DNA from: Candidatus Omnitrophota bacterium
GTDB taxonomy: Bacteria; Omnitrophota; Gorgyraeia; Zapsychrales; JANLHA01
Reading direction: 5' to 3'
Length of the DNA: 64,000 nucleotides
NCBI GenBank assembly: GCA_020632535.1
Contig: JACKFJ010000002.1
Coordinates: 120,245 to 184,244 of the forward strand
The notes beneath the pieces were generated by a model. That model saw only the letters and a list, made by a program, of their open reading frames with translations. It had not been told where the DNA came from and made no database searches. The number at the start of each line of letters is the position of its first letter. Position 1 is the first letter of the stretch. A program made the translations under genes and the position numbers. This document shows positions 8,130-64,000 of this stretch, piece after piece.

Positions 8130-8200
8130 TAATTAATTTTTACGGCTCAAAGTTCCTTCGGAACTGATTCGCCTTAAAAAATTAATTATCACTCCTTGAT
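8118..8200. terminator. Perfect 24-bp palindromic stem (8118-8141 / 8177-8200) with a 35-nt loop holding an inner hairpin; a putative bidirectional terminator or RNA processing site overlapping the mutS stop codon
   Basis: ATCAAGGAGTGATAATTAATTTTT pairs perfectly with AAAAATTAATTATCACTCCTTGAT. The inner hairpin is AGTTC-CTTCG-GAACT (8151-8165). The mutS stop TGA (8127-8129) lies inside the left arm. No U-tract follows, so the terminator call is tentative. Confidence 0.4.
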
Positions 8201-8216
8201 ATAACAATTTAAATTT

Positions 8217-8341
8217 AAGAAGTAAGAACAAGTCCGAAAGCGAATTGAACGCAGCCCCGATTCTGGCCTCCTTAGGCAAATGCCTAAGGAGACATCCACC
8301 GGGGATCGTTCATTGAGATTGAGGACTTGTTCTTACTTCTT
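8217..8341. repeat. Nested inverted-repeat element between mutS and mutL; a structured RNA, regulatory leader of mutL, or MITE-like insertion
   Basis: The outer arms are a perfect 19-bp inverted repeat: AAGAAGTAAGAACAAGTCC (8217-8235) and GGACTTGTTCTTACTTCTT (8323-8341), with an 87-nt spacer. Inside is CCCCG (8255-8259) paired with CGGGG (8300-8304). Inside that is a 10-bp stem CTCCTTAGGC/GCCTAAGGAG (8268-8277 / 8282-8291) with loop AAAT. It ends 14 nt before the mutL RBS. Confidence 0.6.
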
Positions 8342-8365
8342 AGCATAACTACTAAAAGGAAATTT

Positions 8366-10153: not shown

Positions 10154-10155
10154 TA

Positions 10156-13100
10156 TTATCCTTCCCGAACTGTTACCAAAAAAGCCACAATAATCAAAGC
10201 GACAAAATTATCAGTATAATCCCCTTCGGGACTCGAATGAATATTGGAAAACGAAGTTGATCCGACACGGCCAAGATTCTCTCGAAAACTTAATAACCAC
10301 GCTCGCAATTGTGCCCCCATCGCATTAAATGGTCTAATTTTCCAATACCGAATAATAATATAAACAATATATTGAATTTTAATATACGAAATAATCTTTA
10401 TTCGTCTTGGATCTTTAGCGCCTTGCATAGCACTGATTTGAGGAACATTGCTCAAACTCAAAACATACGTAATCAATGACCGCGCCGATAAAATCAAGCG
10501 TGAATAATATTCACGAATACGCGCGCTCAACAATAATAAAGAATTCCCTAACCACCCTCCAAAGTTTGATGTTGCGACACCTTGTATTTTTTCTGATCCT
10601 CCTGACGAAAAATGAGCAAAATCAAATGCTTGCTCACCAGCAACTTGCTGCGAAAGTTTCTGAACAGCCAATGTCAAAATAGAAAAACTTCTTAAACCAA
10701 CTCCATCAACAATCACATTCATTTTATAAACCAAATCACCGACCACGAAAAAGACATTGCCTTGACTCAAAACAAATCGAATTGGCACATAATATCGTCT
10801 CTCTTTATCCAGCTTGACTTCACGACCACGCGGCAGAACCGGCCAACGACTCCAATACAACCTTTCTGAAATTTGCTGACGTTTAACCCTAGTCATTACC
10901 ATTACTAAAGTACTTTGATCAAATGCTTTGTTTATATTATTTCTTGCTTGATCACCAATAACCGTCGAACTAGCCGAGTTATTATCTTGCCCATTCTTAC
11001 CATTGCCGTTCTTTCCATGCCCATTCTTACCATTACGGATCATATCCATCAAACCATTGCGCTTGCCGTTCTTAACGAATTCCATCGCATCATAAAAATC
11101 ATCCGTATGAACTTTGATCTCAAGATCATCAGTCATTCTGCGGCTTAACTTTAGATAAACAACCGCATAAAGAATCGCCAATTGACTGATGTCATCTAAT
11201 TTAGAAAAACTATCGTGCATTAAAATATCACCTGAGTCAGACAATACAATGACTTGTCCTCGAGTTGGATAAGGTGTTTGTGTTATTAAAATATTAAGAC
11301 GTTGCGGCAATGTCCCGTTGAATAAAAACGAATGATTAACAATTTTAGATACCTGATTAAGCTGTTTGGTGATGCCAAGCAAATCGAATTCTACGCTTAC
11401 CCACTGTCCATCGCGACGCTCGAGTGTCAGTTGCTCACTCGAATTCACAAAAACGCTACGCTGTGGCAATCGATTAGCCTTAAACTCCGTATTATTCGGC
11501 TCTCGATTTTCTTTATACCAACCATACAAAACATCCATGAAATCAATTTCGTCAATTGCTTCCATATTCTTACGACCATAAATGATATCGTGGTCTCCAT
11601 CAATTTCGACAAATAACGATCCAGTCAAATCCGCAAATCTTCTATTCGTCCGCGATGGTGTCGTTGGATCATCTTTGCCGACGACAACCCAAGAATTCAC
11701 TTTTCTTACATTCCCCACAATTTCGGCCAACTCCTCCTGCGAAAATCGAATTGAAGTAAAAAGCCAAGCTGTTTCAAGCTGTTGCGTAATATCATTTTCT
11801 TCGGTTGATGAAGCTTGAATCAATTTGTTGTAATAATTATTTGATAATCCGCTTGCCAACAATATTCTCTTCATCGAATGATTATGTGTAGCCATCTGAA
11901 AGATAAGCAAAGCGCCCCAACGTAAATTTGCTGAAAACACTGTTGCGACACGAAACAGCCAATTGATAAATGGTGGAACTGTTAGTAAATCCTCATAAGT
12001 CATCGACGTGAATAATATCGCTTGAACGTGTTCATCAACAGCTCCCCAAACCGCAGGATAACCATGAACTTGTAAAATACGATCCGTCTCTGTCCTTAAA
12101 AAGCTACGCAAAACAATCATTGTCGCAAGTGAATGCGGGACAAGATAAACTTTTTTTGCGGTCACGGTACTGTAAAACTGTATTAGCCACAACAAGAAGA
12201 ACTGCCGACGAAGAATTGGATCCGTTTGCCCAGCAAATTTTTTCAGAAATTCAATATCTTCCACGCTAAGTTTACGTTGACCGATTCTAGGCTCTTGCCC
12301 TTTCGTTAAGCTTAGAATTGTTTCTGCGGTAAACCATTGTTGCGGGATAACAATCGTATCGTTTGGATGCGCCTGTTTTAATTCGGCAAGACTAAAACTT
12401 TGATTTGCAGAAAGACCATGCAAGAAAATCAGAACATTGCCATTATGATCTCCTTCGCTAACTTCAACGACATGTTCAGGAACAATTTCCGCGTCTTGAT
12501 AATGCCGATGCAGTGATGCTCCAGCTTTTTCAACCATAAACTCCATTCGCTGCAAGAATAAATTAATCCATGTCAAGATCGCGATAAGGATGCTTCCCGC
12601 GATGACAAATGAAATAATACCATGCGTAAAATGAGCCAATAAAGGAAACATAACAACAATGGCAATTGTAATATTTACGGTTGTGATCAATGACAATAAC
12701 GATGCGGAATAAATACCACGCTCCTCATTAATGTCCAACGCAATCCATCCCAAAAGAACGGCCGTCAATACCGTCCCAACAAAGGATATGAGTCCACCGA
12801 ACAACGGCCATAACAAACCACCAACGAAAAATGGTATACCACGATAAAACAATTCCTGACGAAAAGCGGCTGGAGTTTGTGCCACAAACCACTCCACAGT
12901 ACGCGAAATCGCCTTATAAAGTTTCTTTTCTTTATTTAGTGATGATTCTCGAATTTCTTTCCAGAATGACAAACCCGAAATAATTTTACCGTAATTTTGC
13001 AAAATCATAACAGGAACAAACGTGATAAATAAAAACACAGAAACACCTGCCAAAATCAAAACAGACCGCCAGCGAGGAGTACGATTGGATACAGAATCTG

Positions 13101-16100
13101 TTGATAAATTAACAGCGGCTTCTTTTTTAGTTTGTGATTTTATTTTAGATAGCTTTCGAATCGCAGGAATATACTGCAAAGCATTGAAAATCGCGTGACT
13201 AAAAGCATTAGGGAGAATTAGTAAATAAACGGGAGAATAAATCACCTTTTGCAGCAGAGTAATGGGCTCTTGAGATATTTTGGACAATGAAATTTTCCAA
13301 CCCGACCAGAGCGCATAGGCACCAATCATATGCACTTCTAAAAGATAATTGCCATGCAGCCATATCCACGAAGAGATCAGCGGAGACAACATCATTCCCG
13401 CCCACACAAACCCAATACCAAATCCTTGACGGACTTTTTGACGCTTAAGTTCTGGAGTAAAATCCGTGACTCTTTCAAAATGACGATTCAAAAAGCGATT
13501 CGGACGAAACGTCTCAAAGAATTCAATAACCGGCGCGTAAAAAACTTCAATCATCCAATTTTGAGGTACGTAAATTAAAAACGTCTCGCGTAAATATTTG
13601 CGGCCAGCTTCATACGTCGCAGGCAAAATTAATGCCGACGAGGCGCGAAAATTATTCTTTTCTCTTAACCATTGCGAGTAAGCTGGCCAAACTCCTTTGA
13701 GCGATTCATCAGACGTGACCAAAGCAAAATGATTCGCTTTCGCCGCTAAGAAAACTTTGACTTCCTTTCCTGCGATACGCTCAAGACCCATGGTCGAAAC
13801 TGGCGGAACCACAACATCATCACCACCCATAAAAACGGCAAGACGAATATCTTTTAATTTTTCGGCAAGAACCTTTGCGCCATCTCTCATCAAATAATTT
13901 TGCTTAAAAATACGTCTGGCAAATTGTGCAATCGCATCCGTCGCCAAATTCGGCGTAATCCACACCCACTGTCTAAACTTGACTCCAATAATAAATTTCG
14001 TTAATTCATCTCTAAATTGCTTAACCCCTGCCCTCAATGCTTCATCTTTTAATCCTTTTGATAAATCCAAGTTCTTATAAACAAACAGTCTCACCTGCAA
14101 CGATTCCCTCGCAGATAAATATCGTTTTACCGTTTTTTTCCCATTAATAACATCGTTTAAAATCTTTATTTGCGCAGGCAAATCATTCATGCTTTGTCTG
14201 ATAAATTCATGAATTTCTGGATTTTGCATCATCGCGTCCATGATCTGCGCGAAGGGACCCGCCGTCATACTTTCAAAATCTTTAATGCCATTAGCAATTA
14301 ATAAAAACTCCTCAAATTCACGACCACCAATGAGTCCTCCCGGATTCGTGGAAGCAATTGCTTCCACCATACCAATCATCAATTCATTCATCGCTAAAGG
14401 TCGCGCGTCAGCATTTAAGAAATCTGCTAAATCTGAATGAACATTTTTATAAGCCACAAGCTTTGGCGCAATATTCTCAAGATGTGTATCCACCGGAGCC
14501 GCTAACATTGTGATTGACGCAATCACTTCCGGGTTTAAATCCGTCATAGCTAATGCCAATAAGAACAAAGCGCCACCCTGCGAATAACCAATAACATTGA
14601 CTGGTCCTAACTGCGCAGCAGCTTCAATTTCTTCTTTAATCCAACGTGAATAATCTACCAAAGAATAATTACGTCGAGCTTCTTGCCAATACATGACATC
14701 TAATGAATTACCTTCAGCAATTAAAACTTTTATAACACTCATGTCTAAATAAGGAATGAGATCAATGATATGCGGCGCCTTCCAGAAAAACGGAATAAAG
14801 AATACCCGAGACTGCGATACACCCTTTGCCTCATAATGACGCATTTCATAAGGCCGATCCTGTCTTTCTGATTTCTGACTCGGAGCCGTTTCCACTTGCG
14901 GAAAACTGTCTAATCCCTGACCAAAACTATAAGCCGCCGCCCATTGAATAATATTATCAATCGTGTTATCTAACGTCATTCCACGACGAAATGCTTCTCG
15001 CAAAATATTATCAATTGCCGATTTAAACTTATCTTCCACTTGCGCAATCGTCACTTGCAATTGCTCCGTTCCAGATTGATTCAAATTATCCATAATATCT
15101 CTCGCGTTCGAGAATGGATCACGAAACGCCATACCCAACAAAGCCTGCGATAAAATCTGAGCTTTTTTAAGAGCACTTTGCAATGTATTCTCTTTTCGCA
15201 TCAGAACAGGAATAATCTGTGTCATAAATGTAGCAACCAAGTCTTTGATTTTGTCTTCAGATTGCGCGACCAAGAATTCGGTTCTACGATTCTCATTCTT
15301 AGCCTGTGATCGTCCCGCCAATGCGCCAAGAATATAAACCAAATTGGCAGCTAAATCACTTTGATCTTCAGCATATTCTTCAGACAACACAATATATTCT
15401 GACTCCCCATCTTTAATTTGATAAATTGTTGGCACTATCAAAAAGTCATTGAAAGTTCCCATGCGAATATGATCGGAATATATAATTTTTCTAAAAACTT
15501 TGGCTAATTCAGAATCGTGATGCTCCAGCCAATACAACGCCACATCAATAGCCTTATGTGTTATCTGACTCTTAACGCGGCCAAGTCCCCCCTGACTCTC
15601 AATCACAAAACGCAAAGCATACATTGCGCGCGCGTACTGTTCGCTATGTTTTTGCGCAAACTTCAAAACACTTAGGACAATATCAATAACCAGTTGATTT
15701 GCCTCTCGACTTTGCGAATGTGTAAGAAAATAAACCAAATTTCCACCCGCTTCTTGTTCTTCTTCAATCATTTTCAAAACATCAAATGCAATAAATTCTG
15801 GATGTGACAAGATCCACGAAACACCTAAACTGTTATCTTTATTACCCAAAGACAAGATTTTTCTCAAAACCTGAACGACAACAGCGCGGTCATTAATTTT
15901 ATGCAATTTATAAAAATTACCAGCCCAATCAAGGCCATCATGGTCAATCATATTACGCGCGACACGGTAAAGTTCTTCAACCGCTTGTGAATCCGCAATC
16001 GACGATGAAGCAGATAAGCGACGTTCTTGCGGATACGGATGAATGTCCATAATCTTGCCTACTTTAATAGCATCAATGACCCTTTGCCAATATTGTGCAT

Positions 16101-19100
16101 GAAACAATTCACCATGTGCTCGCTTAAATTCAGAAACATGCTCCTGCGAAACATACCAAGAGGTCAAAATAATGTTTTCAAACTGCTCAGGAAAGAAATC
16201 GTACGGCCTAACCGTTACTCTCTCGCCAAGAGGTTTCATTTCATCATCATCATTACGCGCAGGTGGAATCTTTCGTGGATTCCAGAGAGCGATAGGGTCT
16301 AAATCATCGTAATCATATAAAACAACCCGACCAGTAGATGTAACACCATAATTTTTAGGAAAGAAATCACCTGCAAATAATCCAATACCAATAATTTCCT
16401 TAAGAGCTTGACCATAGTCATCAACTGTCCTGCGAAGTAATTCCGTGTCTATCGTTTCTTTTAAAAAAGTATCTAGCGGTGTAATCTTTAATTGAATAAA
16501 AAGATCTTTAATAATAATCGTCTCTCCATCGATAATTATAGAATCTGGAGCTCTTTGCTTTAATTCTTCAAGCACTTCTGGTGTAAAATCGGCCGTCGCA
16601 AATCGAACATTGGCATAAATCATCGCATCAAGAAGCCTTCCCGCACGATCCATTTCATGGACTAATTGATACTTTGTTTTAACCATTGCCTTCCCGCCTC
16701 GTATATCATAATCTTCTTTCTCAGAATGATCAGCGGCAACTTTTAGAACATATGGAAAATCATTGTTAAGAGTAAACGTGACCATCACCTTCCCCTTGGT
16801 TCCCTTTGCGAAGACAAATTTGCGCTCTGGATGAGTTAATTCCTCTGCCATAGATATTGTAATTTCAACCTTAGCCGGATAAACAAGCCCAATAGCGGCC
16901 AAGAGAAAAGCTCTATCCTTACCACCGGCGATCGTTTCAATAAACTGAATGATCTCTCGATAGTGCTGAATATCAACCATAAAATTCGCGCGTGTTGAAG
17001 CAAATAAAATACCACTGACATCATTATGGTTCATGAGTAAAGCATCAACGACAATACCAGTTTTGCCTTCTGGATGCGTTAGCGCAAAAACAAGTGGTAT
17101 CGTTTGTCCTTGAGAAATGATTCGACCCATCAGATAAGCTCTTTTGTTACGATAAAAAATTGGATTTAACATCTCAATCATATCGTATCGACGAATATTA
17201 TATTTAGCCATTTCTTGCTCAATGCGCTCTTGACTAAGTCGAATATCGCGATCTAAATCTTCAAACGGAACATTAAAATGAACCCTCATAAAGATTTGGC
17301 GAAGGACACTTTCTACCGAGATTTGATCATGATCACCCGAACTTAACAGGTACGATGTATATGGCTGATTTTGCAATGTGTATTGGATAGGAGTATCTTT
17401 ATGAAGACGTTCATCTTGATATTCGACGGGAATTCCCTTGTGAAGAAAAACACGACGAAAAGCCGAATCAAAGAATTGCATTCCAATATCATCGTCGTAA
17501 TCTTGCCGCAAGCGCTTTTCATAACGAATACGAAGATCTGCCCAAACTGCTGGGTCATCCATCTGTTTACCAAAAATCTTACCAATCTTCTGAACAACAA
17601 TCGTTACGGCTTGCGAACGAGATTTATTTCGATTTCTTTGTTCTCTCTGCATACGATTCCAATCACGAGTTTCAAAAGCCTTCTTGGCAACACGATGAGC
17701 ATTCTTGAAAGCACGAAATGAAGAACGAAATTCCTTATGAATGATACGGGCACTGCGATTCACCATTTCTTCATACATCCGTTCTTTAAAAACTGCCGAT
17801 GAGGAACTCAACACAGCTGTAATTAAGAATCCGCTCTTTCCTTCCAAAATTCTAATATCATCGAAAGCATACTCTCGTAACATATCATTAAAAGTCCAAC
17901 CCAAAAGATGAGCTCTTCCCGCATAAACAACCCCTGCCAATTTCGGCAAAACAATAATTATCCGACCAGAATTCTTTAAAATCCATGAAGCCTGCTTAAT
18001 AACTTGCGCTAAAATGTCAACATAGAAAATTATACCGTTATCGTCAGGCCCTGCTCCACGAGAGATTAAAGTCTTCCCAAAATCTGTCTGCATTGTGTTT
18101 TTATCAACAACTATATGATGCAATGACCTATTAAAAACAACTAAATCCATGGAGTGTTCCTCTAGCACTTTGCTTAAAGCGGTTGCATCGCCATACACAT
18201 GTGTTATTTTCTCTACGACTACTATCTGGTCACTTGCAAATAAATCCAACATTGTCATCCTATGCATGCCGCCAAGAAGTAAACCTTGTGCTGGAGCCGA
18301 ATTAGAAGCTGAACCCACATCAACCCCATTTCCTTGAAGCGAATAAAAAGCCGCTAATGTCTCAAACAACAATACGTCTTTATCATGATCCAAATAATCG
18401 ACAATTCTTTCCTCAATTGCTGACGAGGCCAAATTTCCTTTTCGTATTGCCTCGATACGTGCGTATAACTCAAATGCCGCCGCATTATCAGTAACTTCAT
18501 GAATCTTTACTTTGCCGTCGGGCATTATCACAACAATATACTCGTATGGCTCAACACTAATGCGGGGGAAAAGAAGATACGTAGTCTCTTTATTATCACG
18601 ATCCAGCCCCATACTTCTTCCCAGTTTCAAGAAAAAGAACCGTGGCAGAGAGGAGCCTTTAATCACAATCGTTAAAATATTTCTCTTAATCTGTGTTGTA
18701 AAGTTTTCAACGGCTTCCACAGCTTCATAATCAAAAATCTGAATCGGATTTGTTTCCTTAGGCTCAGCGAGATTGGTGTCGCGCAAATCGATATTACTTT
18801 CAAAACGCACTTTAATGCGCAATTCATTAGCCTTACGTCTGACAAAACGTTCAATCAATGTTGAACGCACTACAAAATCTTTAAGCCCGCCGGGTAAAAG
18901 CAATGGCGCGTTCTCAAGAATGACAATCTTCCCACCAATTTGTCGAGCAAATTTAATTAATAATGGGGCGTCATATGCTTGACGCAACTCTGCGGCTAAT
19001 CGCACAAAAAGGTCTTGGTTATTATCATTATAAAAAGCAATCCCCACGCCATCACCTTGGCGTGTCTCAACAATCTCGCCTGTTTTTTGATCAATAACCA

Positions 19101-22100
19101 AAAGATCAGTATTAATTCTGGGATCATCCAAAGTATTTTGCTCTTTCGAAGATCGATCAACACTGAGCGTCATTTGCTTTTCATTACCTGTCTGAGGATT
19201 AACAGTCGCGAGATATCCAAAATAATCATCATTAATAAATTCACGAACAATAATCGAAGGATAAAATCGACTGGCATCAAATTGATGCCGCTGAGCGCTA
19301 TGCGCCCAATCTTTAATTCTCACCATCAAGTCCACCCACTCATCGTCAAAGTGGCGTATCCATGCTTTTTGAACCATTTCAATAATATTATCGGCGGTAG
19401 CAATTTCCGGCAGCGTTCTTTCACCAAATAAGCGCTGATCCGCCATAGAAGATAATTTCACGATCGCTGTTTTATTACCTAAGGTTTCACGATAAGCCTG
19501 TTTGATCTTTGCTTTAAATTTATCAGACAGTGTAAGCCGTCGAACTTCATCCTGAACACGACTAAACTTATTAGGAAGCTTGTCATTAAGAATATCCCCG
19601 ATAGCTTGATCAAACTCAGCAAATCTTTCCCTCCTGAAAATATTTCTTAAGACAACAAAACCAGCAGGAATTGCAACATCATAACCTTGTTCACGAAGCC
19701 TGAGAGCAACTCGATGGATCATCGCTAACCCATAGGCATTTACACCCGCAATATGTGGATCTTTAATACTTAACTCATCGAGACGAACCACATCCGCGGA
19801 CGTATCCAAACTCCGTACAAGTTTTGAATAATATTCAATCAAAACACGATCATCATCTAATCGAAATCTGCGACTTGCCGAAATTATCGATTCAATAACA
19901 AATCCGATATTCTCCTCTTCAAATGTCGAAAGTTTTAATCGTTTACGGATGACTTCTAGTCGTTCAATAATTCTTTGTGTTGTTTGAAAACGTTTTTTAG
20001 ATTTAATGACTTCAGTAAATTGCAATTCTTTCAAATCAAGCGTCGTAAGATCATAAGCGAATCCCGTGAAGTATCTTCTCTCCGCAGGAGTCGCCCTTTC
20101 AATAATTCGACGTTGTGTTATTTGCAGCCAGACAATAAAGTCTTGATATGCTTTCTGTACCTCGTCCTTCTTTCGCGTCGCCCTAATAGCCCTAAGGGCA
20201 TTATGAAGACGAATAGTTGCTACCACTTCTAGACGCTTATGAACTGTCTGCTTGCGATGCGCAATAAGATCTTCGTCGCTCTCTTGATAAAAATGCCCTA
20301 ACTCCTCAATATAATCTTCCATAGACTTTTCATATTGCACAGCCATATGCTTAATCATGTCAAGCTCATGAGATAACCAATACCGGATAAAACGAATCTG
20401 CCACCATGAATCTTGCGCCTCTTCATCAAGTCTTTCGTAAGCTTCATCAAATCGCTCTGCGACAGCAGCATTAATATCAAAATTTTTCGGTGAATAAATA
20501 CCCTTTAAGCGAGTGTCGATAATTATCTCTTGTCCATCATTCAAAAGACCGTAACCTTCTTCCGTAACCGTCGCCCAAGCAAGTCCCAAAAACGCGCTGC
20601 GACTGACCGTATTACCAGTTTGCGTAATCAATCCGCGAATTCCTGTCTTAAACAAATTACGAAACTCATTGATCGAAAGCTCTTTAGCAACAACAACTTT
20701 ATCTTTGTATGCCGCCACATCACCATTACCATTTGTCCAAACCTTAATCGGACCATAAGCAAAACCATGCGATAAAGTTTCAACAGAAACAATAGCCGAC
20801 GAAGCAGACGTGCCGTTTTGTGTAATCTCATCGACAAGATGGGTGACAATCATATTGCTATCAGCCTTCTTAGAAAAATTCACAATACATTCATGAATCG
20901 CCGCTGCTTCTTGAGTCGTGAGTAAATTTTCTTCGCTAAAAAGATCCCAAATCTTACGAACTTCGTCCCATTTCCAATGACGTGACTGCGCTCTATTCCC
21001 GGTAGGTTGAAAAACAATCGCTTCCGCAATCGGTCGCGCGATAAAGTTGGACTTGCGTAATAAATCCCCTTCCATCCGTGTTTTAAAACCAAACATGAAT
21101 AAATACATCAAGCGGGATAAATCATCGCGACGCTTTAATAATTCATCAATCAATTTTTTATCCAAACTATTTTCCATACTCAAATCAACGATCGCCGCGT
21201 AAATAAGCTTACCAAACCATCCTTTGGACAATTGATCACGTAATTGCTGGCTAAGTTCCTTATTTTCGTCATGAAGTTGTTTTTGTGCTGCAACCATACG
21301 CTCTTGCATGACATGCAAATCAAACAATAGCGGCAACCCAACGACAAGAGCCTGTTCTTCGGTAAACCAATCTAAATAATCTTCTACTTTAGTAACAAGT
21401 GCTGCGATCAACTCTTGCTCGACTTTGATCGAAGCAAAATCACTCTTCTCTAAAGTAATACTTTCTAATTCGGCAATTTCTCTTTGCAAACCTGCCAAGA
21501 TTTCGGCCTGCAATTGATCAACACGCGCTTGAAGCATGACTTCTAAACGATCACCACGACTGTCTTGATTGCCATATTCCTCTAACTGAGCGAATTGGAC
21601 TTCCAACTGTTTAATCAATACATACAAAGCGTCCAAACTTGCAACAGCGGTTATTTGGCCGACGAGTTGATCAAATTCATTTTCTAAAGCGATGATGTGC
21701 GAACGATCTTGTACATTTGATAATTGTTCTAATAAAATCTTTCCTTGTGCTAAATCATCAGCGGTCAATCCTAATTGAGCGCGCTTCTTATCCGCCTTTT
21801 GTGCATCTTGAATTGACAAAATATCGTCTAAAAGCTCATGACCACGTTTAGCATCACTTTGTCCAGCCAACCACGCCTGAACACGACCACGATATTCTTC
21901 TTGAATCACCTTTCTTAAAGAAGCCTTTTTATAAATTCGCTCATCCTGCACTAACTTCACTAAAAATGCTGTTTCAACTTTTTCAAATCTTCCTGCTAAA
22001 GCCTCCGCAGCCGCAACAAACAAGTCATTATCCTGAGCGGCTAATAAAGATTCGAGTCTTTGCGTAATTTGAGCTGATTGACTATTAGCCACCATTAACT

Positions 22101-49100: not shown

Positions 49101-52100
49101 ATAAATTGTGAGTAATGATAACGGTACCGGTCTCACCTAAGAACAAATTAAATTGTCCATCATGGCGATAAAGTTTTTCCATATAAACAGGTCCAAAACC
49201 GGTTTGCCAATCATTAAAGTGCAAGATGTCAACCTTAATCCCTAAAGCAACCGCAATATAAAATGGTGCCTTTGCTAATAAAATGGCTTCAATATATCCA
49301 TAAAGACTGTCGGTATATCGGCTACGAACAACTTGCGAGTACCGATTCGCATCAAGATCTTTTTCCGCCGGATACAATGATGGTTGAAGCAATGTCTGTA
49401 AAATCTTATCGGTCGGATAAAAGCGTAAATATCGAACACCGTTGACATCATTTTGTGTCACATTCATTGTCAACTGACCACTTCCCATCGGAACGGTAAT
49501 CGACGTTAGGACAATCCCTTGTGGCATCACAGGTTTTACGACCGGTGAATATTCAGCCTGATAACCCGGATTAATGACAAAGACCATATATCCAGCTTTT
49601 TCGAGAGCTTCAGCATATTCACGAATATAATCACCTTGACCACCCTTCATCGAAACACCCTCAGCAGCGACTAAAAACACAACTTTCTTACCGGCCGCCC
49701 GAACAGCGACAACCTGATTTTGTATATCCTCAATCAAAATCTTTGACTGTTCATCATGGCCTAATTGACGAACATAAACATGACCATTACCATATGGCAG
49801 TTCTGCCCAAACTTGACGATTTCCAAATCCTTCAAAAGCCACTGTAAATTCAAAATCATCACGAGCTTCAACACGAATCGCATAAACCGCGCGACCATTT
49901 TCAGTGTTTCTAACCCAGTTCATCGGTTCATCTCGCCATTGACCTGTACGATTCGAACGCAAAATCACATGACGTTGTTCACCCATACCACGCGCGGCTT
50001 TATCATCAGTCGCGTAAGCGACTCCCTCAATATTAACCTGTTGACCTGCAGCAACGTGATGAACGCGTTCGGCCAAAAACCCACCATTTTGAACCATTTT
50101 CTTGAAATTAAATTCCGAATAAGATTCTTCCTGAATGCGGATATTAGCCAAAGCCCAATCTTGAGCATGCTGACCCGTCGAACTCATACTTTCAACATGT
50201 CTAATATTTACAGTGCTATCAAAAATATTTTTGGATAAATTAAATCGATGATCCCATTCATCCACAGCGCACATACCGGCAACACTAACACTATTATTCA
50301 AAACAAATTGTTTAATCGCTTCTAAATCCCAATCTTGAACTTTCTGCGCGACTGGTTTATGCACAAATCGACTTTGATAATGAATTGTTTGAACGCGAAC
50401 ATTTAAGTCATTTAAAACATCCATCATTTCATTTAATATTTCAGCAAATGTCCGCACCTGCATCGCGTTGCGATAAACGTAGGCACCCACCAACGTACCG
50501 TCAGCCATAAACCCGCGCAACGCGAGAAATTCACTATCATTGTTATTTGCACTCATTCGTAACATATATACGTCCGCCTGAGTTTGTTCTACCATAACGA
50601 TCACCCATCCCGCTTTAATGACAAAACTATTAGCTGGATATTGAGCTTGCATGGAGTAGTTGTTATCCCAAACATATTGTTTTGTGAAAGCATCCTTGTA
50701 ATAATCCGGACGGGCAGATTGAACTGCAGGGATATACGTATACTTCTCTTCTGAATCAATTACACGATAAGAAGCGATTTGACCAATTTCGAGTTCATCT
50801 AAAGCCGTCATGGTTTCAAACCATTGATTGACCTGAAGAACATAGTTTAAGGATGCGTTCGGAAGACGGCTGACAAGACGGCTATGAACAGCGGCGCTTT
50901 GTCCAACATGAAGAAGATGATCGATTTCGTCGGTAATAATTAATTTGAGGGATTCATAAAGGTGCGGTAAATATGCTGCGCTTTCTTGTTCTTCAATGAA
51001 TTCTGGTGGCGCGCGTAAAGCACGATACGAAAGGTAAATCTCGCCATGACGAACATAAGCGATTTCGCCAGCGTCACCGTGTAAAATCAACTTGATAATT
51101 TTGTGAGTCGATTCGCCAAACCAGACCAATTTATCATTTTGTGTTTGCTGAACAAAAGCATAATTGATAGCATCCGCAAATTCTTTCGCAGGAAAATCTT
51201 TCAAATCAGCCGGCAACTTACCCAACTTACTCATGGTCACTTTACCAGTGCTCGGATAAATGCGAACCTTAACATTTAGTTCAACACGCGGCAATCCACG
51301 AAGCGCGGCAACATAAAGCGGGAAGCCATCTTGATTAATCGCGCTGGAGGCGGCATTGCTATGACCAGAACCAACAGACTTAATTTGTGTAGCGTAATTA
51401 TCTAATTGCTTACGGAAAGAATCCACATCCATCGCATTAACGCCGATCGCAGCAATGACATTTGCAGAATGTTGTAGAACTTCTTTAACCGTTCCTTCAA
51501 AAATACCGCCGGCAACAATAATCGGCAATTGGGCATTAGCTTGTCTGACCGCTGTGAGGAAGTTTTCTGCAGCATCCGCAGAACTTTTCTTTAATTGACC
51601 AAACGGCTTAAATAACACGACATCGACGTCTTTGGCCACAGTATTGGCAACTTCACTTTGAACCATTGTCATATCAAGCGGCAAGTTCAACGTCAATTCA
51701 GAGATAATCACGACATTCGCATTATTGCGGCGAATATTAGCAACGATTTCTTTAGTCCAGTTAGAACCGATAAGAATGTTAGCACCTTTGCGATTAGCTT
51801 CTAAGGCGCTGACTTCATCATTGACGAAGAACGCGACGATTGCCGTTGCATAATTTACATCTTGACGTAATGATTCCAAAACATCCATACGATCTAACGA
51901 AGGAATAATTTGACGATCAAGAAGTTCTTTTGCAAAATTCACAAGAAGCGTGGAATCAAGTGCCGCATAACCTTTACCGCCGGTAGTTGTGTGTAACCCA
52001 GCTTCAGCGCGGAAAGATTGTAATACTTCAATCACCTGTTGACGATTATAAACACTAGAAGATACACGATTCTTGACTTGCTCGACACGCTGATCATTTT

Positions 52101-55100
52101 CCAAAGCCCATTTGACAGTTTCAAGTTCATCACCATTGTTGACCGCAGAGCTGGCAGATGTCGAATTTTTGGTTTGAATATATAACGGTTCATAGCTGCC
52201 ACGTTTTAGAAGCACCGACGTTTCATGCACTTGTTCCACATCGCCCCACATATCATGATCTTGTGTGCTATAAACAACAACATTAACTGTCTCAACGATA
52301 CGATCAACTCTGATCATGTCCGGTGTATATGAACCTTGTTGCAAGTTTTGAACATAAGCAATCTCACGCTGCATAATCGCGCCAATTTCATACTTAGAAA
52401 CAGACTGTAAAGCTTTTTGAAGTTCTTCAGCGCGGATCAAATGAATACCTTTTTCCTCTAAGATTTTACGATATTCGACGGCGTATGGTCGAAAGACCGA
52501 TTCAGTCGTTTCGTAATATAATGGGTCTTTGCTCGCCATCTCACGTTCACGTGCTGCATCTCTCCTCGCACGGATGTACATGATAAATCCAGCAACCACA
52601 CCAATAGCAACAAGCACAATTAAAACCATTTGACCGATTGTTAAATAAGCCGCGATAGCGGTGATTGCAGAAGATGATTTGATATCGGTCAAATTCTTAA
52701 CTTTGCTATCCGTACTTGCGCTAGAAGAATTTTCTTCACCCTTCTTATTTAAGGCTTTGATCTTTTCTTCTTCCTTTTTGATCTTTTCTGCGGCAACCCA
52801 CTGATTAATTTGTTCCATTTCCTTTTCTGCAGATTTTGAATCTTTTCCAAATGCGGCAAAGAAGAGAAGGCCGGCAATAAGTACAGGAGATAAAATACTC
52901 AAAAAGATCAACACTGAAACATTTAAAATCGTCGCTAAAAATACTGCTGGCAAAATCCATGCGGCAATAATACCGCCTGTTACAGCCAAAGTGTATTTCG
53001 TATTCTTAACATAACCATTTTCATTTGGACGATTAACACGAGTCTTAGCACCCAAATAAGCGATCTTAATAAAGATGCGGCTGCCCCAAACGCGTTCTTC
53101 AACCAATGTGCTATACAAGAAATCACGGAACCCTGTCAATGTCCATTTATTCACAGTCAAAACATTAGTAGCCCCGCTAGTAACCAAGGCAAAAATTGCA
53201 ACGACCATCAAAACGAAATTGATCAACTGCACTAAAGGATTGTTCCAATTGACAATACCAGTCACCACCATAAAGATGATTGAAGCAAAGAAGACTAAAA
53301 GACCTTTCCACCAACCAAACATAGCAAACAAATCCATACCCTTTAAGTGACGACGGGATTCGCCATTTATCGTCCCTGCTTTAATGCCAAACAGACGAGC
53401 GAGACCATCAAGCTTAAAGAATGCTAACCAACCATTAAATTTCGAAACAAACGTATTATATGCAAATGTACCCGTCAAGAATGACGTTGACGCAAGCATA
53501 TAGACTAAGGTAATTGCTGGACCAAACGGTGTCGTACTTAATAAAGCAAAGAACCAGCCGAGTTGACCAAGCATACCGACAAAGCCGTCGAATGGAAATG
53601 CTTTCTTAAACTTTGACAACATGATAAAGCCGAAGAGCATCACAATCGGAGCAATAATTAATAATGCTGTCGAAATCCAAAGCGAAGCAAATATATGCAA
53701 AATAACAGCGAATATTTCTAAGCCCACCCCAATTCCAAAAACAACTTTACCTGCATTCTCAGTACGATTAACATTCAAACTCAACACCTTGGTATTTTCA
53801 TAACGGGTCTCAACACTCCATTTACTTAAGTTTGGCTCTTTGGCGGTACGAATAAAGCTAAAACTTTCATTCGATGCATAAAAGACACCCTTAACGAAAC
53901 TGGCAATAAGATTGACATAGAATGGGAAGCCGGCCATCGTTTCAATCAGAGCCATCCAAATCGCCTTCAAGAAGCTACCCGTCAATCGTAATTGACGTAA
54001 GAAGTTATGCAAATTGATCGCTTGCATCAAGAATGTACTGACGCCGGCGAATAAGAGAATCGGCGTTAAAAACGCGAAAGAACTAAATGTCGCGCCAACC
54101 GGCAAGAAGATCAAGAGTAAGACAGCATTAATCGCAGTAAAGTAATGAGCAAAGAACCCTAAGTGAGCAAGCTTCACATCGTAACCAATATCTTTATTAG
54201 TGAAGACTTCAAATTGCCCACGATCCATCATAAAGCGAGTAACGTTAAAAGCGTAACGGGTTTCAGTAGCGTACAAGGATTCAGCCAAGAGTGAAGGACG
54301 GCCCCATTCAAACGTAAGCCAATCTACCTGTGTCGAAAGAACATTCGGATAAGAACGCTGCATAACTAAGAACGCGCCAGAGTCTTCACCCGGAGGTGTT
54401 AATAATGTATCGCCAGCCGCCGGTGTGATCAAAGCCTTACCGTAGAACGTTGTCATACCACGACGTGCTCTTTGAACATCAGACGTAAACGTTTCTTGAG
54501 AAACTTTGTATAAACGGGTAACAGGGAAAGCCCAATTGCTAGATGCCCAAATGCGCATGTTCGGGTTAACAACAACAATTTCCGGATTGCGGCCAACTAA
54601 AGAAGCCCATGATGTTGTATAAATGTTTTGCCCCGGATACACACGCACATGTGCGTCTAAGTTCATGCTACGTCCGTATGTTGCCCAGAGATTGATAACA
54701 ATATTACTGTTCTTCACACCCAAAACTGGATTATCTTTCGAGCGATCGTAGAACGGTAAGTAGATATCGTTCTTGATCGTTTCACGAATAACATATGTCA
54801 CGTGCATGGCTTGTTGCCAAGCGGCGATCCAAGCCGTCGGAAGCGTGCCAGTATTACGAGTACGAATGAAATCAACAATATTTTCACGACGGAACTGATC
54901 AAAAGTATCCGCAAGCGTAACCAAATCTTTAGCGCTAATCGTTTTTCCTTCACCACTCCAGAGTCCTTGTTCTTTTAAGAACGCAAGAAGGTTGGCAACT
55001 AAAGGAACTTGTGATTCGGCAAAGAAACCGGCAAATGGTCCTTCTTCTAATTTATATTGTCCATCATTTGTTTTACCCATCAATTGACCCCAGAGTAAAC

Positions 55101-58100
55101 CTTCACTGAATATGCCACGAACTTTTTCATTGGCTAATGCGCGATACATTTCATATCCTTGCATAAAGACTTCGCGAACGGCGACATCACGAACTTGTAC
55201 GGCACCTTCCGCATAAGCAGCGGTCAATGTCCGATACTTAGCTAAAACGTCATTTAATGCTCTAGCGTATTCGAAATCCGCATTTTCGTTAGCAAGATAA
55301 ATATGCATTTCATTGATGTTCTTAGCTTGACTACGGGCAACAGAAATGTTAGCCGGACGAACTTCATTCATCAATTCTTCAAGAGCCGTGATGACCATCA
55401 TAATTTCTTCCTGTGACAACCCTTGCTCAAATAAACGAATCAATTTTTGATTCATATTAGAAAATTCATCAGAGCCCTTGAATTCCTTGATAATCAATTG
55501 CAATTTGTCAGCGGATATTCTGCCGGCCAAAAGATTGATTTGATTATTGAATTCTTCCTTAAAACTACGAATCAAATAACCCAAGAGCGTGGTGTTGCTG
55601 ATATGACGCAAATCTTCACGATTCTTAATCAAATAATCTCTATCGCTTTTATTTAAATCCTTTATACCTGCGACAATTTCAACAACATCCAAATCTGTTT
55701 GTTTAGTTCCTTCGATAGATTGATAAGCAGCGGCAACGCGAGCAGCAGCAATAATGAATGCTTTTTCTTCAAGGCTTAAATTGACAGCCTTATTTACTAA
55801 AGCATTAAGATCTTCAACGCGGACTATCGATTCCACAATGGTAGTAATATCAGCTTGCTTCTTCTTATACTCAGCCAAAGTAATTCTCATGTTTTTCTTA
55901 TTACGAGCCAAAATCATACCCATCACAAGATTGATGAGTTTAAACTTATCTGGAATATCAAATGAACCGGATTGCATATCATTTTCAAAAATATGCGCGA
56001 AAAGTTCACCGTATGCGGCAACGTGACTGGATGTCGGCTGTAAATGTTCCACAACATCGGTGGCCGGTTTCATCTGGCTTAATGAGAAGAATTGCTGATA
56101 AAAGACTTCATAACCTTTTTCGGTATCAGGAAGCATAAACGTAAAGGCATTCGGATTAAGAATGACTTTGACATTCGCATCATAAACTTGCTTGCTGATA
56201 CGGCCTTCTTCTTTTTCGATTAAAAGCATGCGTAAGAAATAGTTCTCGATGGTTTCACCATTAGGCGTGATCGCGCCATAGCGGGCTTCGATTTCGAGAA
56301 ATTCTTGATACCATTTCGTATAGAATGCGCCATTCTTAATACCATTCATATCTCTATTTAATGCCTTCAATAACCAGATCGAACGGGCCGTTTTGCTCCA
56401 TGTCGTAGTATTCAAAAGCAAGTAACTCTTCACAACAGTAAATATATGCATAAAAGTAATTAAGGTCGGAACAAACATAAGCACGAATAATCCAGCTGTG
56501 ATCGCAAACCCTAATGTGCCAAAATGGATAACAGCAAATTTCCAGAAGACAAAATGGGTAATCCAACCTAAGTACAATGTTGTTGCAGTAAATGTTGCAA
56601 CCCATAACCATTTTTCAGATGAGAAACGAACCTTACCAGCCAAAAGCGTAGGTAATCCAGCCAAGAACATCATAAAGATATACCCTAAAGCCGCATAACG
56701 GGTAGCAACAATAATATATCCGCCGCCCAAAATACCAACCAAAGCTAAAGCGATCACTAACATACGCAAAGCTTTTGAATGAATGGCCCAGAAGTTTTCC
56801 AAGCTTCTAAATTTGCCCGGAATCTTCATGACAAAGCGAGCAATCAAAGCACCGAAGAACATCGGACCCAAGATACGGATACCAAACAGATGAATAATGC
56901 CGCGCTTATTATTTGTCATTTCATCTGCTTTAGCTGCATATGGAGACTTTTCTGCGCTTAACTTCATCGTTTCTTGTTTAAGCAAGCTTGTAAACGGGAT
57001 CACTGTTTTTCTAGCGTGATCCAAAATGTCAGAATATCCCAACTTTGTTTTTAAGAAAGCACCGTACAGCTCTTTATGCTTGGCAAGAATTTCTTCTAAA
57101 CGAACTGTAATCGCTTCGAATTTCTTTTCATTGGAAGCTTTATTGTCGGCACCAAATTCATGATCAAACATCGCAGTAATGACACCATTAAATTGAACCA
57201 AACCTTGCTCACCCTTGTTTGCCAAACGGTCAAAAAGATCATGCACGTCAGTATCAACAAGGATCTCATACAAATGAAATTCAGCTTGGGCTTGTTCGAG
57301 CGGCGGCTGTGTAACTAATTTCCATAAACCAGCACCAAAATGAAGCGGCGCATACCAATTATTCAAATGGAATAAAGCCTTCCAAAAACGAGCATAAGTG
57401 TGAATATGCTCCATAACAAAAGCGGCGTCCTTACCTATAGAAAGATTTTTAGCCGCTTCGCGAACAATAAACAGCGTTAATGGATAGTTGAATGTTGTCC
57501 CACCCAATGAATATTCATTGGTTTCGCTCGGAGGAGATTGTAACAATTTCACAAAGATATGTTCAAAAACCGTTGTTGCTTCAACATTCGGAGTTGTCGG
57601 ATACGGATTATACTTTGCGGTTAAAACTTCGCCAGCTTTAGCGATGCGAGACGGATACAAGGTGAAGAATCTCTTTAATTCGCCAACAACGCTAACAAAG
57701 AGCTCATTGATAAATGCAGCATTTTTAATTGTGCTCTTTGAATAAGCATTAAATGTCTTATTAAGAACCTCATCAAAAAGTGTTCTGGCGATGCGAGTCT
57801 TAACACTTTCGACAAAGAGTCTCATGCTCGCTCTTTGGCCGTGACGTGCAACATACGCCTGAGCTTGACCAGCAAACACAGCATCGGTTTCATCACCAAA
57901 GTATTGTGTATCAATTAAATGCGCCAAAACACGGACAGCTGGTGTTGGCAAGAGCGTGTTTAAATCTTCGCGGATATCTTGACCTGCCGCCAATGCCTGA
58001 AGCGTACGATTTTCGACTTCGATAACAAGTGCTTTCAATAACTGTGCCCAACGCAAACTGTCATTATTAATATTGATCTGCAAACGACCATTAATACTTT

Positions 58101-61100
58101 GCAATTCTTTTTCACTGATTAAATTACGAGTAATAAGTTCCTTTAAGACAATCGCCGGAGAATAACCCTTAGCGGCCGCAACAAAAATTTGAGCTTTCAA
58201 GGATTTCTTAAGATTAAACTTCACAGCAACCTCACGTAAGCGCGGATCAATTTCTTTAATATCTTTGAAACTTAAGCGGCCACTAATAACCATTCTAATG
58301 ACAGCTTTTAATTCTGTGACTGTTAAAATACGCGCCGATCCTAAATATCTAATCAATTCCTTCCGAACTTTATATTTGCTGTCGATATTGATCGTCAAAT
58401 TAAAGACTGAATTCATCTGACGAATGATGATCAATGCCGTCGCGATGCTGTGTGTCATACCCTTGATCTTCATCAACTGAGCATACGTAGCAAAGTTCGC
58501 ATTCTTGCGGAAACTAGACTGACGAACGAATTTCATCACCCAAACAACAGCGTACGGCGCGGTAAAGAAGATCGCGATAAGTGCTAAAATTCCAAAGCCC
58601 CAAACTGTGCCAGTATTGTATTGACGAGCGCCTTCGTTAAAGATTTCTTTCGGAATCGGTAACCCTTGGCTAACGTAAAGTGTTAAGATTTCGCTACCTT
58701 TAGCTTCAAATGCTAAACGAATATCCTTAACGTTGTCGCCGTCTTTCATAAAGCTAAACGGATTATGGATTCCGCCGATCGTGATGGCTCCGATACCGGC
58801 ACGTTCCAATAACCACGTTGTCGGAGCATTACGAATTTTATCTCCCAGCGTATTGTCATAAACATCCAAATTCGTCGAAGTTCCATCAATACGGGCAAAT
58901 AAACGACCATTTTTCAAAATACGGATATCCGGAGAAGCCACCGGAGTTGGCGATTGGATATTCTCCTGCAACATCACAAAAATATTCCCGCGAATCTTAT
59001 CTGGCCAAGCACGAATCGTATACAAGCTATACAATTCTTCTTTAAGCGGGTCACCTTGATTAATACCGAAGAAGTTCTCAAATCCTCGGACCACTTTGTC
59101 TTCCAAAGTTAACGGTGTGTTTTCATTAAATAAAGCACGATAAATATCCTTAGCATTGCGCGGTAAGCGAGTTGTCCACATCGGCAAACCGTCACGAGAA
59201 GAAATCTTATATTCTTCATCAACACGGAACTCATCAACAACGCCAGTCTTGTAGTTAAAGAGAATCAAGATGTTTTCATTCTTATATTCAAGACCGTCAC
59301 GATAATCTTCCGTAACATCATAGATATATTGATAAATATTTTTGTCCTGAACAATGCGATGCGTGCGATATACGGTCGCACGAACGATGCGCCCTAACTC
59401 TTCGTTGTACGAAGTTTCACCCGAAGCAATACCCGGCGGGACATCAAGAGACTTGCCGTTACGATCAATCGTCGGTTCATATTTCATGAAGCGCCAATCG
59501 CCGCTATCAAACTTGACAAAGTCGCGTGATAAAGGATCGCGAGCACCTAAGTAACGGGTAAGAACCGGTGCTAGAATCTGTTCAGTCGCTGGATCAATAA
59601 TCAAATTACGCTTGATCTTAATTAATTTTTCTTGAGTAAAGACACCCGCATTCTCGCTGCGCAATCTATTCATAGTTGCAGAGGAAAGGTTAATTTCATT
59701 CTTGAAGAAATCTTGGACAGTCATTTCGCCATCTTGGTCTGTTTCTTGTTTGAAGATCTGACCAAGATAAGAATACTCATAAGCAACCGTTGAGTTTTGA
59801 CCAGCCCACACTGTGTTAATGATCGTATTCGGATTCTGATCGCTCGTGATAAAGACGAGAACACGAGCCAAAGGATCTTCTTTAATGCGGAAGAAGAAGC
59901 GAGTTCCATCTTCATTGAAAGTAACGCGACCCTTCACGAAGCTGAATTTATCAGCATTAGCTTTATCTCCGGTCAATTCAAGAGCAACCAATTCAAGAGC
60001 ACCGCGCAATTTTGCGCGAGCATTGGCTTTAAGATTGTCCGCAAAAACCAAATCTTGCATAAGCGCGTCTAAGGCAACGTCTAAATTGCCTGTGGCTTTA
60101 AATTCCTTAACGCTATAACCGCGAATGACTTCTTTATCAAGTTTAAAGCTATCGCCTTCTTTAAACGCTAAGTACGTTTGGCGGGTCGTCTTTTTATCAT
60201 CGATCGTATTTTCATGTTCGATACGGAATTCGATCAGATACCCTTCGCGCTTGACATATTCCGGTAAACGGTCAATTTGAGCGACAACAGTATCTTTGCT
60301 TTCATTAACAAGGAAGGAGCGAACAAACTTGTTTTCATGATCACGTTCTTCGGAAATAACGAACTGATCATTATTCATAAATTGCAATTCTTGTGACAAT
60401 TGATTCAACGTCTGCTTCGTGCGAGATGTTTTTCCAACCACATCATTCGCGTTAACCACGGCTAAAACTTCTCCATTGCGAGTGATGATTTCATAATCGC
60501 CTAAAACATTCGTTTGATAATAATAAATCGGACGAACTTCATCTTTGTTGTAACCGATTACGATTTTACCGTAAATCTTCTGATCGCCGGCGTTGACCTT
60601 AATCGTCTCATTGGTGTAATACGATTCAAGATATGTTTCACCCTTGGTATCGACACCAAACACACGCTGAATAATACCAATATGATCTTTACGTTCTGTC
60701 ATCGTGATTTCTTTATTATCAATCGTCACAGCGCCCTGTTGAGTCGTGTAAGCAATCGGCTTAATTACAGCCTGGCTGCCTAATAATTTCTTATTGAATT
60801 CTGCTAAGCGATAAATTTCACCACGTTTTTCGTTAAGGACAACTTCGGCTTCCGCGTTTTGTGTTTCATATGGAAGGTAAACACGAACCATCTTGCGATC
60901 ACCACCATTACCTAAGAGCGTGATCGATTTAGCGGTTTGGCGAATCGCAGCGAAGTTTTCTGTCTTTTCAAATTCTGCGATTGGAACATAGTAAGATGTC
61001 TTTTTCTCATCTTTTCCGATGACCAAATAATGTGTCGCTTGTAAAAGATCTAATGTCGCATCTCCAACCGTGTTGTAATCCAAAAGGCCAAGCAATGTTG

Positions 61101-63954: not shown

Positions 63955-64000
63955 AACAGCCGCATTGATTCCTTCAACAGAACCCGCGTTTAAGAAATTA

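Follow-up and report, generated by a model that had tools for sequence, protein, structure and literature searches.

A 53.8-kb open reading frame of an Omnitrophota bacterium encoding a probable membrane-anchored mosaic of enzyme-like modules

The 64,000-nucleotide stretch of contig JACKFJ010000002.1 analyzed here (positions 120,245 to 184,244 of the forward strand; GenBank assembly GCA_020632535.1, Candidatus Omnitrophota bacterium), referred to below as the window, includes a giant open reading frame (ORF) on the minus strand. This ORF is a genuine single chromosomal gene of an uncultured bacterium, and its product very probably belongs to the known class of Omnitrophota giant proteins that are anchored by transmembrane (TM) segments and combine many enzymes in one chain. 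The product can be considered a non-repetitive mosaic, in which at least two modules, related to the kinase/phosphatase AceK and to the glycogen synthase GlgA, are full-length homologues of independent genes. The ORF and these two modules have the following locations, with amino acids (aa) numbered from the annotated start:

10156..63954, minus strand: giant ORF, 17,932 codons plus a stop codon, with an ATG start at 63954
47875..49683, minus strand: GlgA-like glycogen/starch synthase, GT5 plus GT1 (aa 4758-5360; Pfam, NCBIfam and homologues)
16006..17775, minus strand: AceK, regulatory and kinase/phosphatase domains, full-length (aa 15394-15983; Pfam, NCBIfam and PDB)

None of the 17,932 codons is an in-frame stop, whereas the two alternative frames of this stretch hold 1,047 and 1,739 stops. 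The codon usage of each sixth of the gene correlates with that of the adjoining mutS and mutL genes (r = 0.69-0.79, against 0.25 for an out-of-frame reading), and both GC content and GC skew are even along the full gene. A chimeric contig, or neighboring genes fused by annotation, is extremely unlikely in view of this uniformity and of the lack of in-frame stops; in addition, the same position, convergent with mutL, is independently occupied by giant ORFs in related loci. The annotated start is unverified. Between the ATG at 63954 and the end of the window at 64000 the frame continues without interruption (63955-64000, 15 sense codons, stop-free); 17,932 aa is therefore a minimum length, and the gene may begin outside the window. 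A Shine-Dalgarno check cannot discriminate the start, as the flanking genes are also devoid of an obvious motif of this kind, and the N-terminal 700 aa had no match in JGI metagenome contigs.

The original prediction, made from the sequence letters before any database search, described the product as a mosaic of full-length homologues of free-standing enzymes and regulators and not as a repeat adhesin. The latter point was confirmed. Tandem Repeats Finder reported two trivial arrays only in the gene, with no meaningful nucleotide tandem repeats, and comparison of the protein with itself revealed four local duplications only. Giant repeat adhesins, such as RTX- or Bap-like proteins and the giants of Chlorobium chlorochromatii, are alike in size class and in symbiotic or epibiotic association; unlike them, the protein has neither tandem repeats nor adhesin-type domains, which rules out this identity. 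At least 10 different families are found along the chain, and only helix-turn-helix (HTH) modules (about seven) and LOG domains (two) recur. The mosaic description held for the non-repetitive architecture and for the full-length AceK and GlgA-like modules, but all supported modules together make up about 18% of the chain (about 3,300 aa).

Pfam scans were carried out on 5,000-aa chunks and on overlapping 1,250-aa chunks of the protein, which was also searched with NCBIfam, PDB sequences and PADLOC. The AceK-like kinase/phosphatase that had been predicted was recovered with Pfam E-values of 3e-70 and 7e-60. Its regulatory and kinase domains scored 203 and 237 bits, over profile positions 1-300 of 302 and 2-256 of 256. 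The NCBIfam match, with an E-value of 3e-139 and 465.1 bits, lies just under the equivalog cut-off of 488 (NF002804), and the module aligns with residues 12-571 of the 578 of Escherichia coli AceK (PDB 3lc6). In the HMMER alignment the equivalents of K336, D457, K461, N462, D475 and D477 are identical, among them K336, D457, N462 and D475, which we take to be the catalytic and ATP-binding residues. The module retains 76 of the 114 columns that are conserved at 90% or more in 48 free-standing AceKs, the other 38 being changed, and a conserved block that ends the regulatory domain (aa 15652-15700) is not retained. The 49 homologues named AceK share 28-35% identity with the module, are 430-602 aa long (570-602 aa in 48 cases) and cover 69-94% of it (90-94% in 48 of the 49). 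As it is the case for free-standing AceK (E. coli, PDB 3lc6 and 3eps; 29-35% identity), both Pfam domains are found in order; here they are embedded in a giant chain. A published survey of 176 complete Omnitrophota genomes reported that the glyoxylate shunt is absent and isocitrate dehydrogenase present, and the usual physiological context of AceK is therefore probably absent here.

The predicted GlgA-like synthase was likewise found in full length. It matched Pfam at 1e-29 (PF08323, 103 bits; PF00534, 33 bits) and the NCBIfam glgA profile (TIGR02095) at 3e-48 over positions 3-476 of 477, with 165 bits against a cut-off of 328. Its nearest relatives form a separate subfamily of free-standing "starch synthases" of 612-640 aa (38-41% identity, 96-100% covered), and the module retains 116 of the 147 invariant positions of this subfamily. 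One of these relatives (P0054) is an isolated 619-aa gene with unrelated neighbors; another (P0051) fills an open-ended 3-kb Omnitrophica contig and is therefore a fragment of another long ORF. Among what we assume to be the canonical GlgA motifs, namely the N-terminal KTGGL, R300/K305 and E377, the module includes SRLVMQKG (R300/K305-like) and WEPGG (EPGG), together with a C-terminal KTGGL. The N-terminal KTGGL is changed to a shifted MKGGQG, and DWH to DWQ. The GlgA-like region of the gene is also overlapped by a 157-aa antisense ORF (49765-50238, plus strand), which is probably a chance ORF.

Other recognized modules, all on the minus strand, are as follows:

51415..51837, minus strand: possible alpha/beta or TIM-barrel-like segment (aa 4040-4180; sub-threshold TMP-TENI, Pantoate_transf and thiE matches, 14-17 bits)
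45649..45861, minus strand: Mesh1/SpoT-type HD region, alarmone-hydrolase-like (aa 6032-6102; weak support)
44587..44748, minus strand: Pol-beta-type nucleotidyltransferase (NTase) core (aa 6403-6456; Pfam 17-21 bits, under the cut-off)
34405..35166, minus strand: RelA/SpoT homologue (RSH)-like region (aa 9597-9850; NCBIfam, PDB and Pfam, moderate to weak)
33265..33444, minus strand: ACT domain (aa 10171-10230; Pfam 27.0 bits against a cut-off of 27, borderline)
27436..31821, minus strand: array of about seven XRE-type HTH modules (Pfam and a local hidden Markov model)
25012..25533, minus strand: first LOG domain, LOG1 (TIGR00730/Lysine_decarbox; aa 12808-12981; NCBIfam, Pfam and PDB)
24340..24837, minus strand: second LOG domain, LOG2 (aa 13040-13205; 31 bits)
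22675..22950, minus strand: TPR stretch (aa 13669-13760; Pfam, under threshold)
18472..19797, minus strand: PPDK_N-like ATP-grasp (aa 14720-15161; transitive, through homologues)
13645..14817, minus strand: PhaC-like alpha/beta hydrolase (aa 16380-16770; Pfam and NCBIfam)

Both LOG domains of the original prediction were found. LOG1 scored 102 bits against the TIGR00730 cut-off of 96.35 and has an intact PGGFGSLNE (motif PGGxGTxxE), while the equivalent PSGNAALDV of LOG2 is degenerate and fails the motif test. The HTH array is also there, with about seven copies by the local model where about eight had been announced; they start at aa 10712, 10789, 10917, 11532, 11608, 11752 and 12111 and span aa 10712-12173. 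TPR sequence had been predicted too, and the stretch listed above is what the Pfam scan returned.

The RSH synthetase with an ACT domain became an RSH-like region followed by a borderline ACT match. The region was recognized by NCBIfam spoT_relA (2e-12), by RelA structures in PDB (3.5e-6) and by Pfam RelA_SpoT with 26.0 bits against a cut-off of 27, over profile positions 2-58 of 113 only. It retains RxKxxxSxxxK and the Asp, but the catalytic EVQIRT is replaced by DIIVMN, so that the synthetase motif is degenerate. The HD hydrolase found a weak counterpart in a match to Drosophila Mesh1 (PDB, E = 0.0023) that includes the HDxxED motif (H...YLVH...FLHDVREDS), and the several Pol-beta NTases were reduced to one core with an intact GS-x12-DID motif. 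The PPDK_N call stands through homologues. Among PDB sequences the module reached phosphoenolpyruvate synthase only, at E = 0.023; an exhaustive HMMER search of 1.84 billion representatives yielded 11 homologues, and in three of them (P0139, P0141 and P0145) Pfam PPDK_N coincides exactly with the aligned part.

The PhaC-like module matched Abhydrolase_1 (33-38 bits) and PHA_synth_III_C (TIGR01836; 55.7 bits against a cut-off of 365). Its nucleophile elbow, G-Y-S-Q-G-G, has Ser16458 where polyhydroxyalkanoate (PHA) synthases have the catalytic Cys (G-x-C-x-G), and for both reasons it was rejected as a PHA synthase. Names that refer to PHA or alarmone synthesis, used in the original prediction, go beyond what this Cys to Ser change and the degenerate RSH motif permit. 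The second alpha/beta hydrolase of that prediction found no support, the chain having a single GxSxG elbow, nor did its GNAT-like modules in profile searches, and a PDB search of aa 10231-10711, the likely site of its kinase-like fold, was empty. The methyltransferase-like match reached 15 bits. AlphaFold2 run without an alignment gave unusable models of the TIM-barrel-like area (aa 3940-4240, pLDDT 42.4) and of the HD/NTase area (aa 5967-6662, pLDDT 34.5). PADLOC returned generic HTH matches only on the giant protein and so gave no support to a conflict-system origin, which was rejected. Judged by its motifs, the chain is a mix of apparently competent enzymes and of degenerate or repurposed ones: the catalytic residues are retained in AceK, LOG1, the NTase and the HD region, and are degenerate or altered in the RSH synthetase, LOG2 and the PhaC-like module.

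At least six TM clusters had been predicted, and a home-made hydropathy scan gives seven, with about 25-30 helices in all; the helix counts of clusters A, B and G are uncertain:

58522..58620, minus strand: TM cluster A, first hydrophobic segment (aa 1779-1811)
56425..56901, minus strand: TM cluster B, about five helices (aa 2352-2510)
52561..54165, minus strand: TM cluster C, about 10 helices as five hairpin pairs (aa 3264-3798)
46063..46194, minus strand: TM hairpin D (aa 5921-5964)
43813..43950, minus strand: TM hairpin E (aa 6669-6714)
26215..26370, minus strand: TM hairpin F (aa 12529-12580)
12547..13074, minus strand: TM cluster G, four to five helices (aa 16961-17136)

From aa 3264 on, most hydrophobic segments are 44-55-aa units, each most readily interpreted as a pair of helices with an uncharged turn between them and K/R on either side. 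Hairpins D, E and F are each flanked by very large soluble stretches. Anchors of this kind would fasten the chain to the cytoplasmic membrane at intervals, and an even number of helices at each of them would leave all large modules on the same side. The simplest location for them would be the cytoplasmic face, since AceK, the NTase, the RSH/HD regions, PPDK_N and the GlgA-like module depend on nucleotides or on nucleotide sugars, the HTH modules need DNA or cytoplasmic partners, and hairpins insert without translocating large domains. This face would supply ATP, GTP, ADP-glucose, and DNA or protein partners. The resulting tethered array would serve to co-express and co-localize enzymes of carbon storage, carbon flux and nucleotide signaling, along with lineage-specific modules. 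A membrane-tethered array with its modules on the cytoplasmic face is put forward tentatively, at somewhat under an even chance. It would fit the class of Omnitrophota long proteins described as "TM-only, membrane-anchored cytoplasmic-domain", and the reading that blends the known giant class with a cytoplasmic tethered array is the one that we moderately favor.

Several observations weigh against a cytoplasmic array, the main one being the amino acid composition. There are two cysteines among the 17,932 residues (positions 4562 and 14356), and this exclusion is uniform along the chain, as compared to about 1% cysteine in MutS and MutL and 0.75-1.2% in free-standing AceK and GlgA homologues. 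The AceK module is cysteine-free. Giant ORFs of two related loci, L084 and L085, which are described below, have 0.02-0.23% cysteine against 1.0% in the adjacent MutL. Cysteine exclusion is a classic signature of exported proteins (PMC2823432), and in its near-total form it would fit a cytoplasmic location poorly. The K/R enrichment at the hairpin flanks is weak (about 3.1 per 20 aa against 2.3 expected), and the topology rests on the hydropathy scan, with the uncertain counts already mentioned. The N-terminus may lie beyond the window, where an upstream signal peptide is possible. Most domains of comparable proteins were predicted to be extracellular, a prediction flagged as unreliable by its authors (West-Roberts 2023, bioRxiv 10.1101/2023.11.21.568195). 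Finally, both the activity of the modules and the persistence of an intact chain after translation are predicted, and about 75% of the protein is without assignable function.

Because cysteine exclusion marks exported proteins, it keeps alive the alternative in which the chain is a surface-exposed "coat" or an effector cocktail delivered into a host or prey, whose metabolism would be the target of the ATP-dependent modules, namely AceK, the NTase, RSH/HD, LOG and the GlgA-like synthase. The replacement by Ser of even the PhaC-type catalytic Cys, the host-associated or predatory habit of Omnitrophota and the unverified start are in line with export, and the location of all modules on one side is compatible with it. 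On the other hand, no signal peptide is found at the annotated N-terminus, upstream of which the frame runs on without a stop as far as the window edge. At E<=0.5, the Pfam scans of the overlapping 1,250-aa chunks showed no SecA_DEAD, HEAT, RTX, C39, S8, CPD or other secretion-related or protease domains; PADLOC adds generic HTH matches only, and no secretion genes were found in the 10 kb downstream of the giant gene. Furthermore, hairpin anchors alone would not translocate soluble segments of 600-5,800 aa, and the enzymes need cytoplasmic cofactors. We therefore regard export as unlikely. Its more specific form, in which a host or prey cell would receive the whole chain, threaded or handed over, as a cocktail of effectors in one molecule and the hairpins would be membrane-insertion devices, is more doubtful still. 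If it were true, the intact AceK would switch off the isocitrate dehydrogenase of the host, and the HD, RSH, LOG and NTase modules would rewire its nucleotide signaling. MARTX toxins and the "polyvalent proteins" of phages and conjugative elements are also very large chains of unrelated effector or enzyme modules, variable in content between relatives. Unlike these, the giant protein is devoid of RTX repeats and of a processing domain of the cysteine-protease type, and its context is not that of a mobile element, its neighbors being mutS and mutL; compared with their general descriptions, it has multiple internal TM hairpins and is three- to four-fold larger.

The sequence without assignable function includes two long segments and most of the N-terminal part, since aa 1-4000 gave no match at all in profile searches:

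35275..43806, minus strand: dark region of 2,844 aa (aa 6717-9560; no Pfam or PDB match)
10159..12546, minus strand: C-terminal tail of 796 aa with no detectable family

A word-seeded search of 5.8 billion proteins found no homologue of the dark region. Within it are two copies of a module of about 270 aa, named X, that are 46% identical (aa 7631-7901 and 8169-8441; nucleotides 38632-41064, minus strand). A second module, Y, of about 200 aa and all-alpha, is interleaved with the HTH array (aa 10970-11171 and 11201-11402; nucleotides 29749-31047, minus strand), and its copies are up to 77% identical (aa 11021-11171 against 11252-11402). Neither X nor Y has a Pfam relative, and profile searches of PDB sequences gave nothing meaningful; both recur in L084 and L085 at 27-50% identity. 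The extent of dark sequence, together with the degenerate catalytic motifs of several modules and the unrelated C-termini of the syntenic ORFs in relatives, could suggest a largely non-functional accretion, a fast-evolving "junkyard" in which captured genes decay and the frame stays open mainly by selection against stops. We consider this very unlikely. A stop-free 53.8-kb frame with native codon usage throughout requires strong frame selection, AceK and the GlgA-like module retain the conserved positions described above (all catalytic residues in the case of AceK), the orphan modules X and Y have conserved counterparts in other loci, and the removal of cysteine in itself testifies to selection on the protein.

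Among the loci of the best MutS matches, nearly all of which are Omnitrophota MAGs, seven have a long minus-strand ORF downstream of mutS/mutL and convergent with them. The visible part of this ORF is 1,628 to 2,735 aa in six of them, where it runs off the locus (L003-L006, L011 and L018), and L008 has a shorter one of 928 aa. The C-termini of these mutL-convergent ORFs are unrelated to the giant protein and among themselves. When the giant was compared by tblastn, phmmer and blastp with the long ORFs adjoining mutS/mutL in 80 GTDB loci there was essentially no similarity, with the exception of L005 (26% identity over 175 aa). The domains of the syntenic ORFs differ as well: one (L004, 14517-22553, minus strand), of which the C-terminal 2,679 aa are seen, has LpxR (220 bits), Fic and NUDIX, another has an Rce1-like domain, and a third includes a methyltransferase.

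Two more distant relatives, L085 and L084, came out of the search of representatives. In L085 (JGI 3300007484, Ga0100465_10249) a giant ORF convergent with mutL (MutL 49% identical) is seen over its C-terminal 4,134 aa. This ORF carries PPDK_N, PRK and GNAT, and has module Y and PPDK_N blocks in common with the giant protein. In the same locus (12565-22502), a 225-aa MutS_V fragment, 70% identical to the MutS C-terminus, is found beside mutL and is overlapped by the end of a same-strand ORF of more than 3,792 aa that carries a copy of module X; the latter is possibly a giant ORF abutting or replacing most of mutS.

More extensive relatedness was found in L084 (JGI 3300056624, Ga0558117_03137; 1-27074), in which blocks 25-60% identical to the giant protein occur in a different order. 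Those matching aa 10314-13215 are collinear (29-60% identity) and directly followed by the equivalent of aa 14384-15185, and the equivalents of aa 13507-14388 and 9060-9518 are further downstream. AceK is absent, and Glucosamine_iso and 2-Hacid_dh modules are found instead. This stretch of about 16,200 aa consists of four consecutive same-strand ORFs (9,648, 435, 2,357 and 3,761 aa), and the frame switches inside collinear homology. As judged from these comparisons, the locus is conserved and holds a giant gene that evolves fast, with shuffling, gain and loss of its modules. Since module content and order differ between related loci, the chain grows and changes by module fusion and shuffling. 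Complete enzyme genes and lineage-specific modules are thereby joined into one membrane-associated chain under strong frame selection.

The split organization of L084 suggests that covalent continuity is dispensable, which would be expected if the product were a polyprotein that is cut after translation into separate enzymes and regulators, with the fusion serving co-expression only. The match of modules to complete free-standing enzymes agrees with this, and proteolytic processing of such giants was proposed by West-Roberts 2023. On the other hand, decay or mistakes in the assembly could account for the frame switches of L084, the giant protein showed no protease domain, be it C39, S8 or another, a repeated linker or cleavage motif was not found, and the regularly spaced TM hairpins argue for an anchored chain. 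A polyprotein is therefore improbable, and a tethered cytoplasmic array is retained as the preferred reading.

The genes that serve as a chromosomal, syntenic anchor for the giant gene are:

5571-8129, plus strand: mutS, downstream neighbor of the giant gene
8327-10153, plus strand: mutL, downstream neighbor, convergent with the giant gene

The stop codons of mutL and of the giant gene are 2 nucleotides apart (10151-10158), leaving no intergenic room for terminators. The adjoining MutS is 83% identical to that of the metagenome-assembled genome (MAG) "Candidatus Omnitrophota bacterium SJ432", which indicates that the host is an Omnitrophota bacterium; the next-best matches are at 53-67% identity and, of the next 17, almost all are Omnitrophota MAGs. 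At the left end of the window an AdoCbl (cobalamin) riboswitch is found at 1259-1398 on the minus strand (Rfam RF01482, 51.5 bits against a gathering score of 50), just downstream of a DUF6580 gene (1459-2022, minus strand) and upstream of a minus-strand gene toward the window edge. An 872-aa ORF at 2840-5458 (minus strand) has no cysteine and showed a weak TPR match only.

The original prediction considered the combination of enzymes in one membrane-threaded chain to be without textbook precedent, a statement that the literature contradicts. Giant Omnitrophota ORFs were reported by Seymour 2023 (PMC10066038), and multi-enzyme, TM-anchored ones by two later studies. West-Roberts 2023 described TM-rich "Archaeovorins" with GT5 glycogen-synthase-like, GT1, TPR, PPDK and glycolytic-enzyme domains. 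Nielsen & Lui 2026 (bioRxiv 10.64898/2026.06.07.730766) collected 916 proteins of at least 10,000 aa, with a class of "multi-enzyme metabolic clusters" in which PF08323 occurs in 153 proteins beside GNAT, HD and methyltransferase modules; it is their "TM-only, membrane-anchored cytoplasmic-domain" class, 46% of Omnitrophota long proteins, that a tethered array would fit.

The protein encoded in the window shares with the multi-enzyme class (class 1) the phylum, a single ORF of more than 10,000 aa and the tiling of many enzyme families with none dominant. Published Omnitrophota giants of at least 10,000 aa have a mean of 22 TM helices, comparable to the 25-30 estimated here, and are likewise mostly unannotated and poorly conserved. 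GT5, GT1, PPDK-type and TPR modules on a TM-rich giant chain are in common with Archaeovorins. Unlike these, most of which have SecA_DEAD and which frequently include HEAT and C39/S8, the giant protein gave no match to any of these domains at E<=0.5, nor was a dockerin detected. The 39,678-aa protein of Velamenicoccus archaeovorus LiM, as summarized in PMC10066038, is similarly an Omnitrophota giant, in which various enzyme-like domains are combined with tens of TM helices, and it alone among relatives of this kind has its expression supported by proteomics. It was proposed to be an extracellular polysaccharide-degrading coat; compared by description, the protein studied here differs in that no glycoside hydrolase or peptidase domain was detected.

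The main texts of West-Roberts 2023 and Nielsen & Lui 2026 do not mention AceK, RSH/HD, LOG, an XRE-HTH array or a PhaC-like module, and we claim no novelty for these as giant-protein modules. Cysteine is likewise not mentioned in those texts, nor is its exclusion or hairpin-only anchoring discussed. New details are possibly this exclusion, an anchoring mostly by hairpins, and a conserved mutL-convergent position with shuffling of the modules.

Omnitrophota giants are among the largest proteins known, and the present one adds little as a category. Its value is that of a clean, fully open 53.8-kb ORF with AceK, GlgA-like, LOG and Ser-nucleophile PhaC-like modules that can be tested individually. 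The AceK with an intact active site is notable in a phylum reported to be without the glyoxylate shunt. Scaffold, polyprotein and effector explanations have already been debated in the literature on Omnitrophota giant proteins, and cysteine exclusion, hairpin anchoring and the shuffled mutL-convergent locus, if general in the catalogues of these proteins, could help to decide between them.

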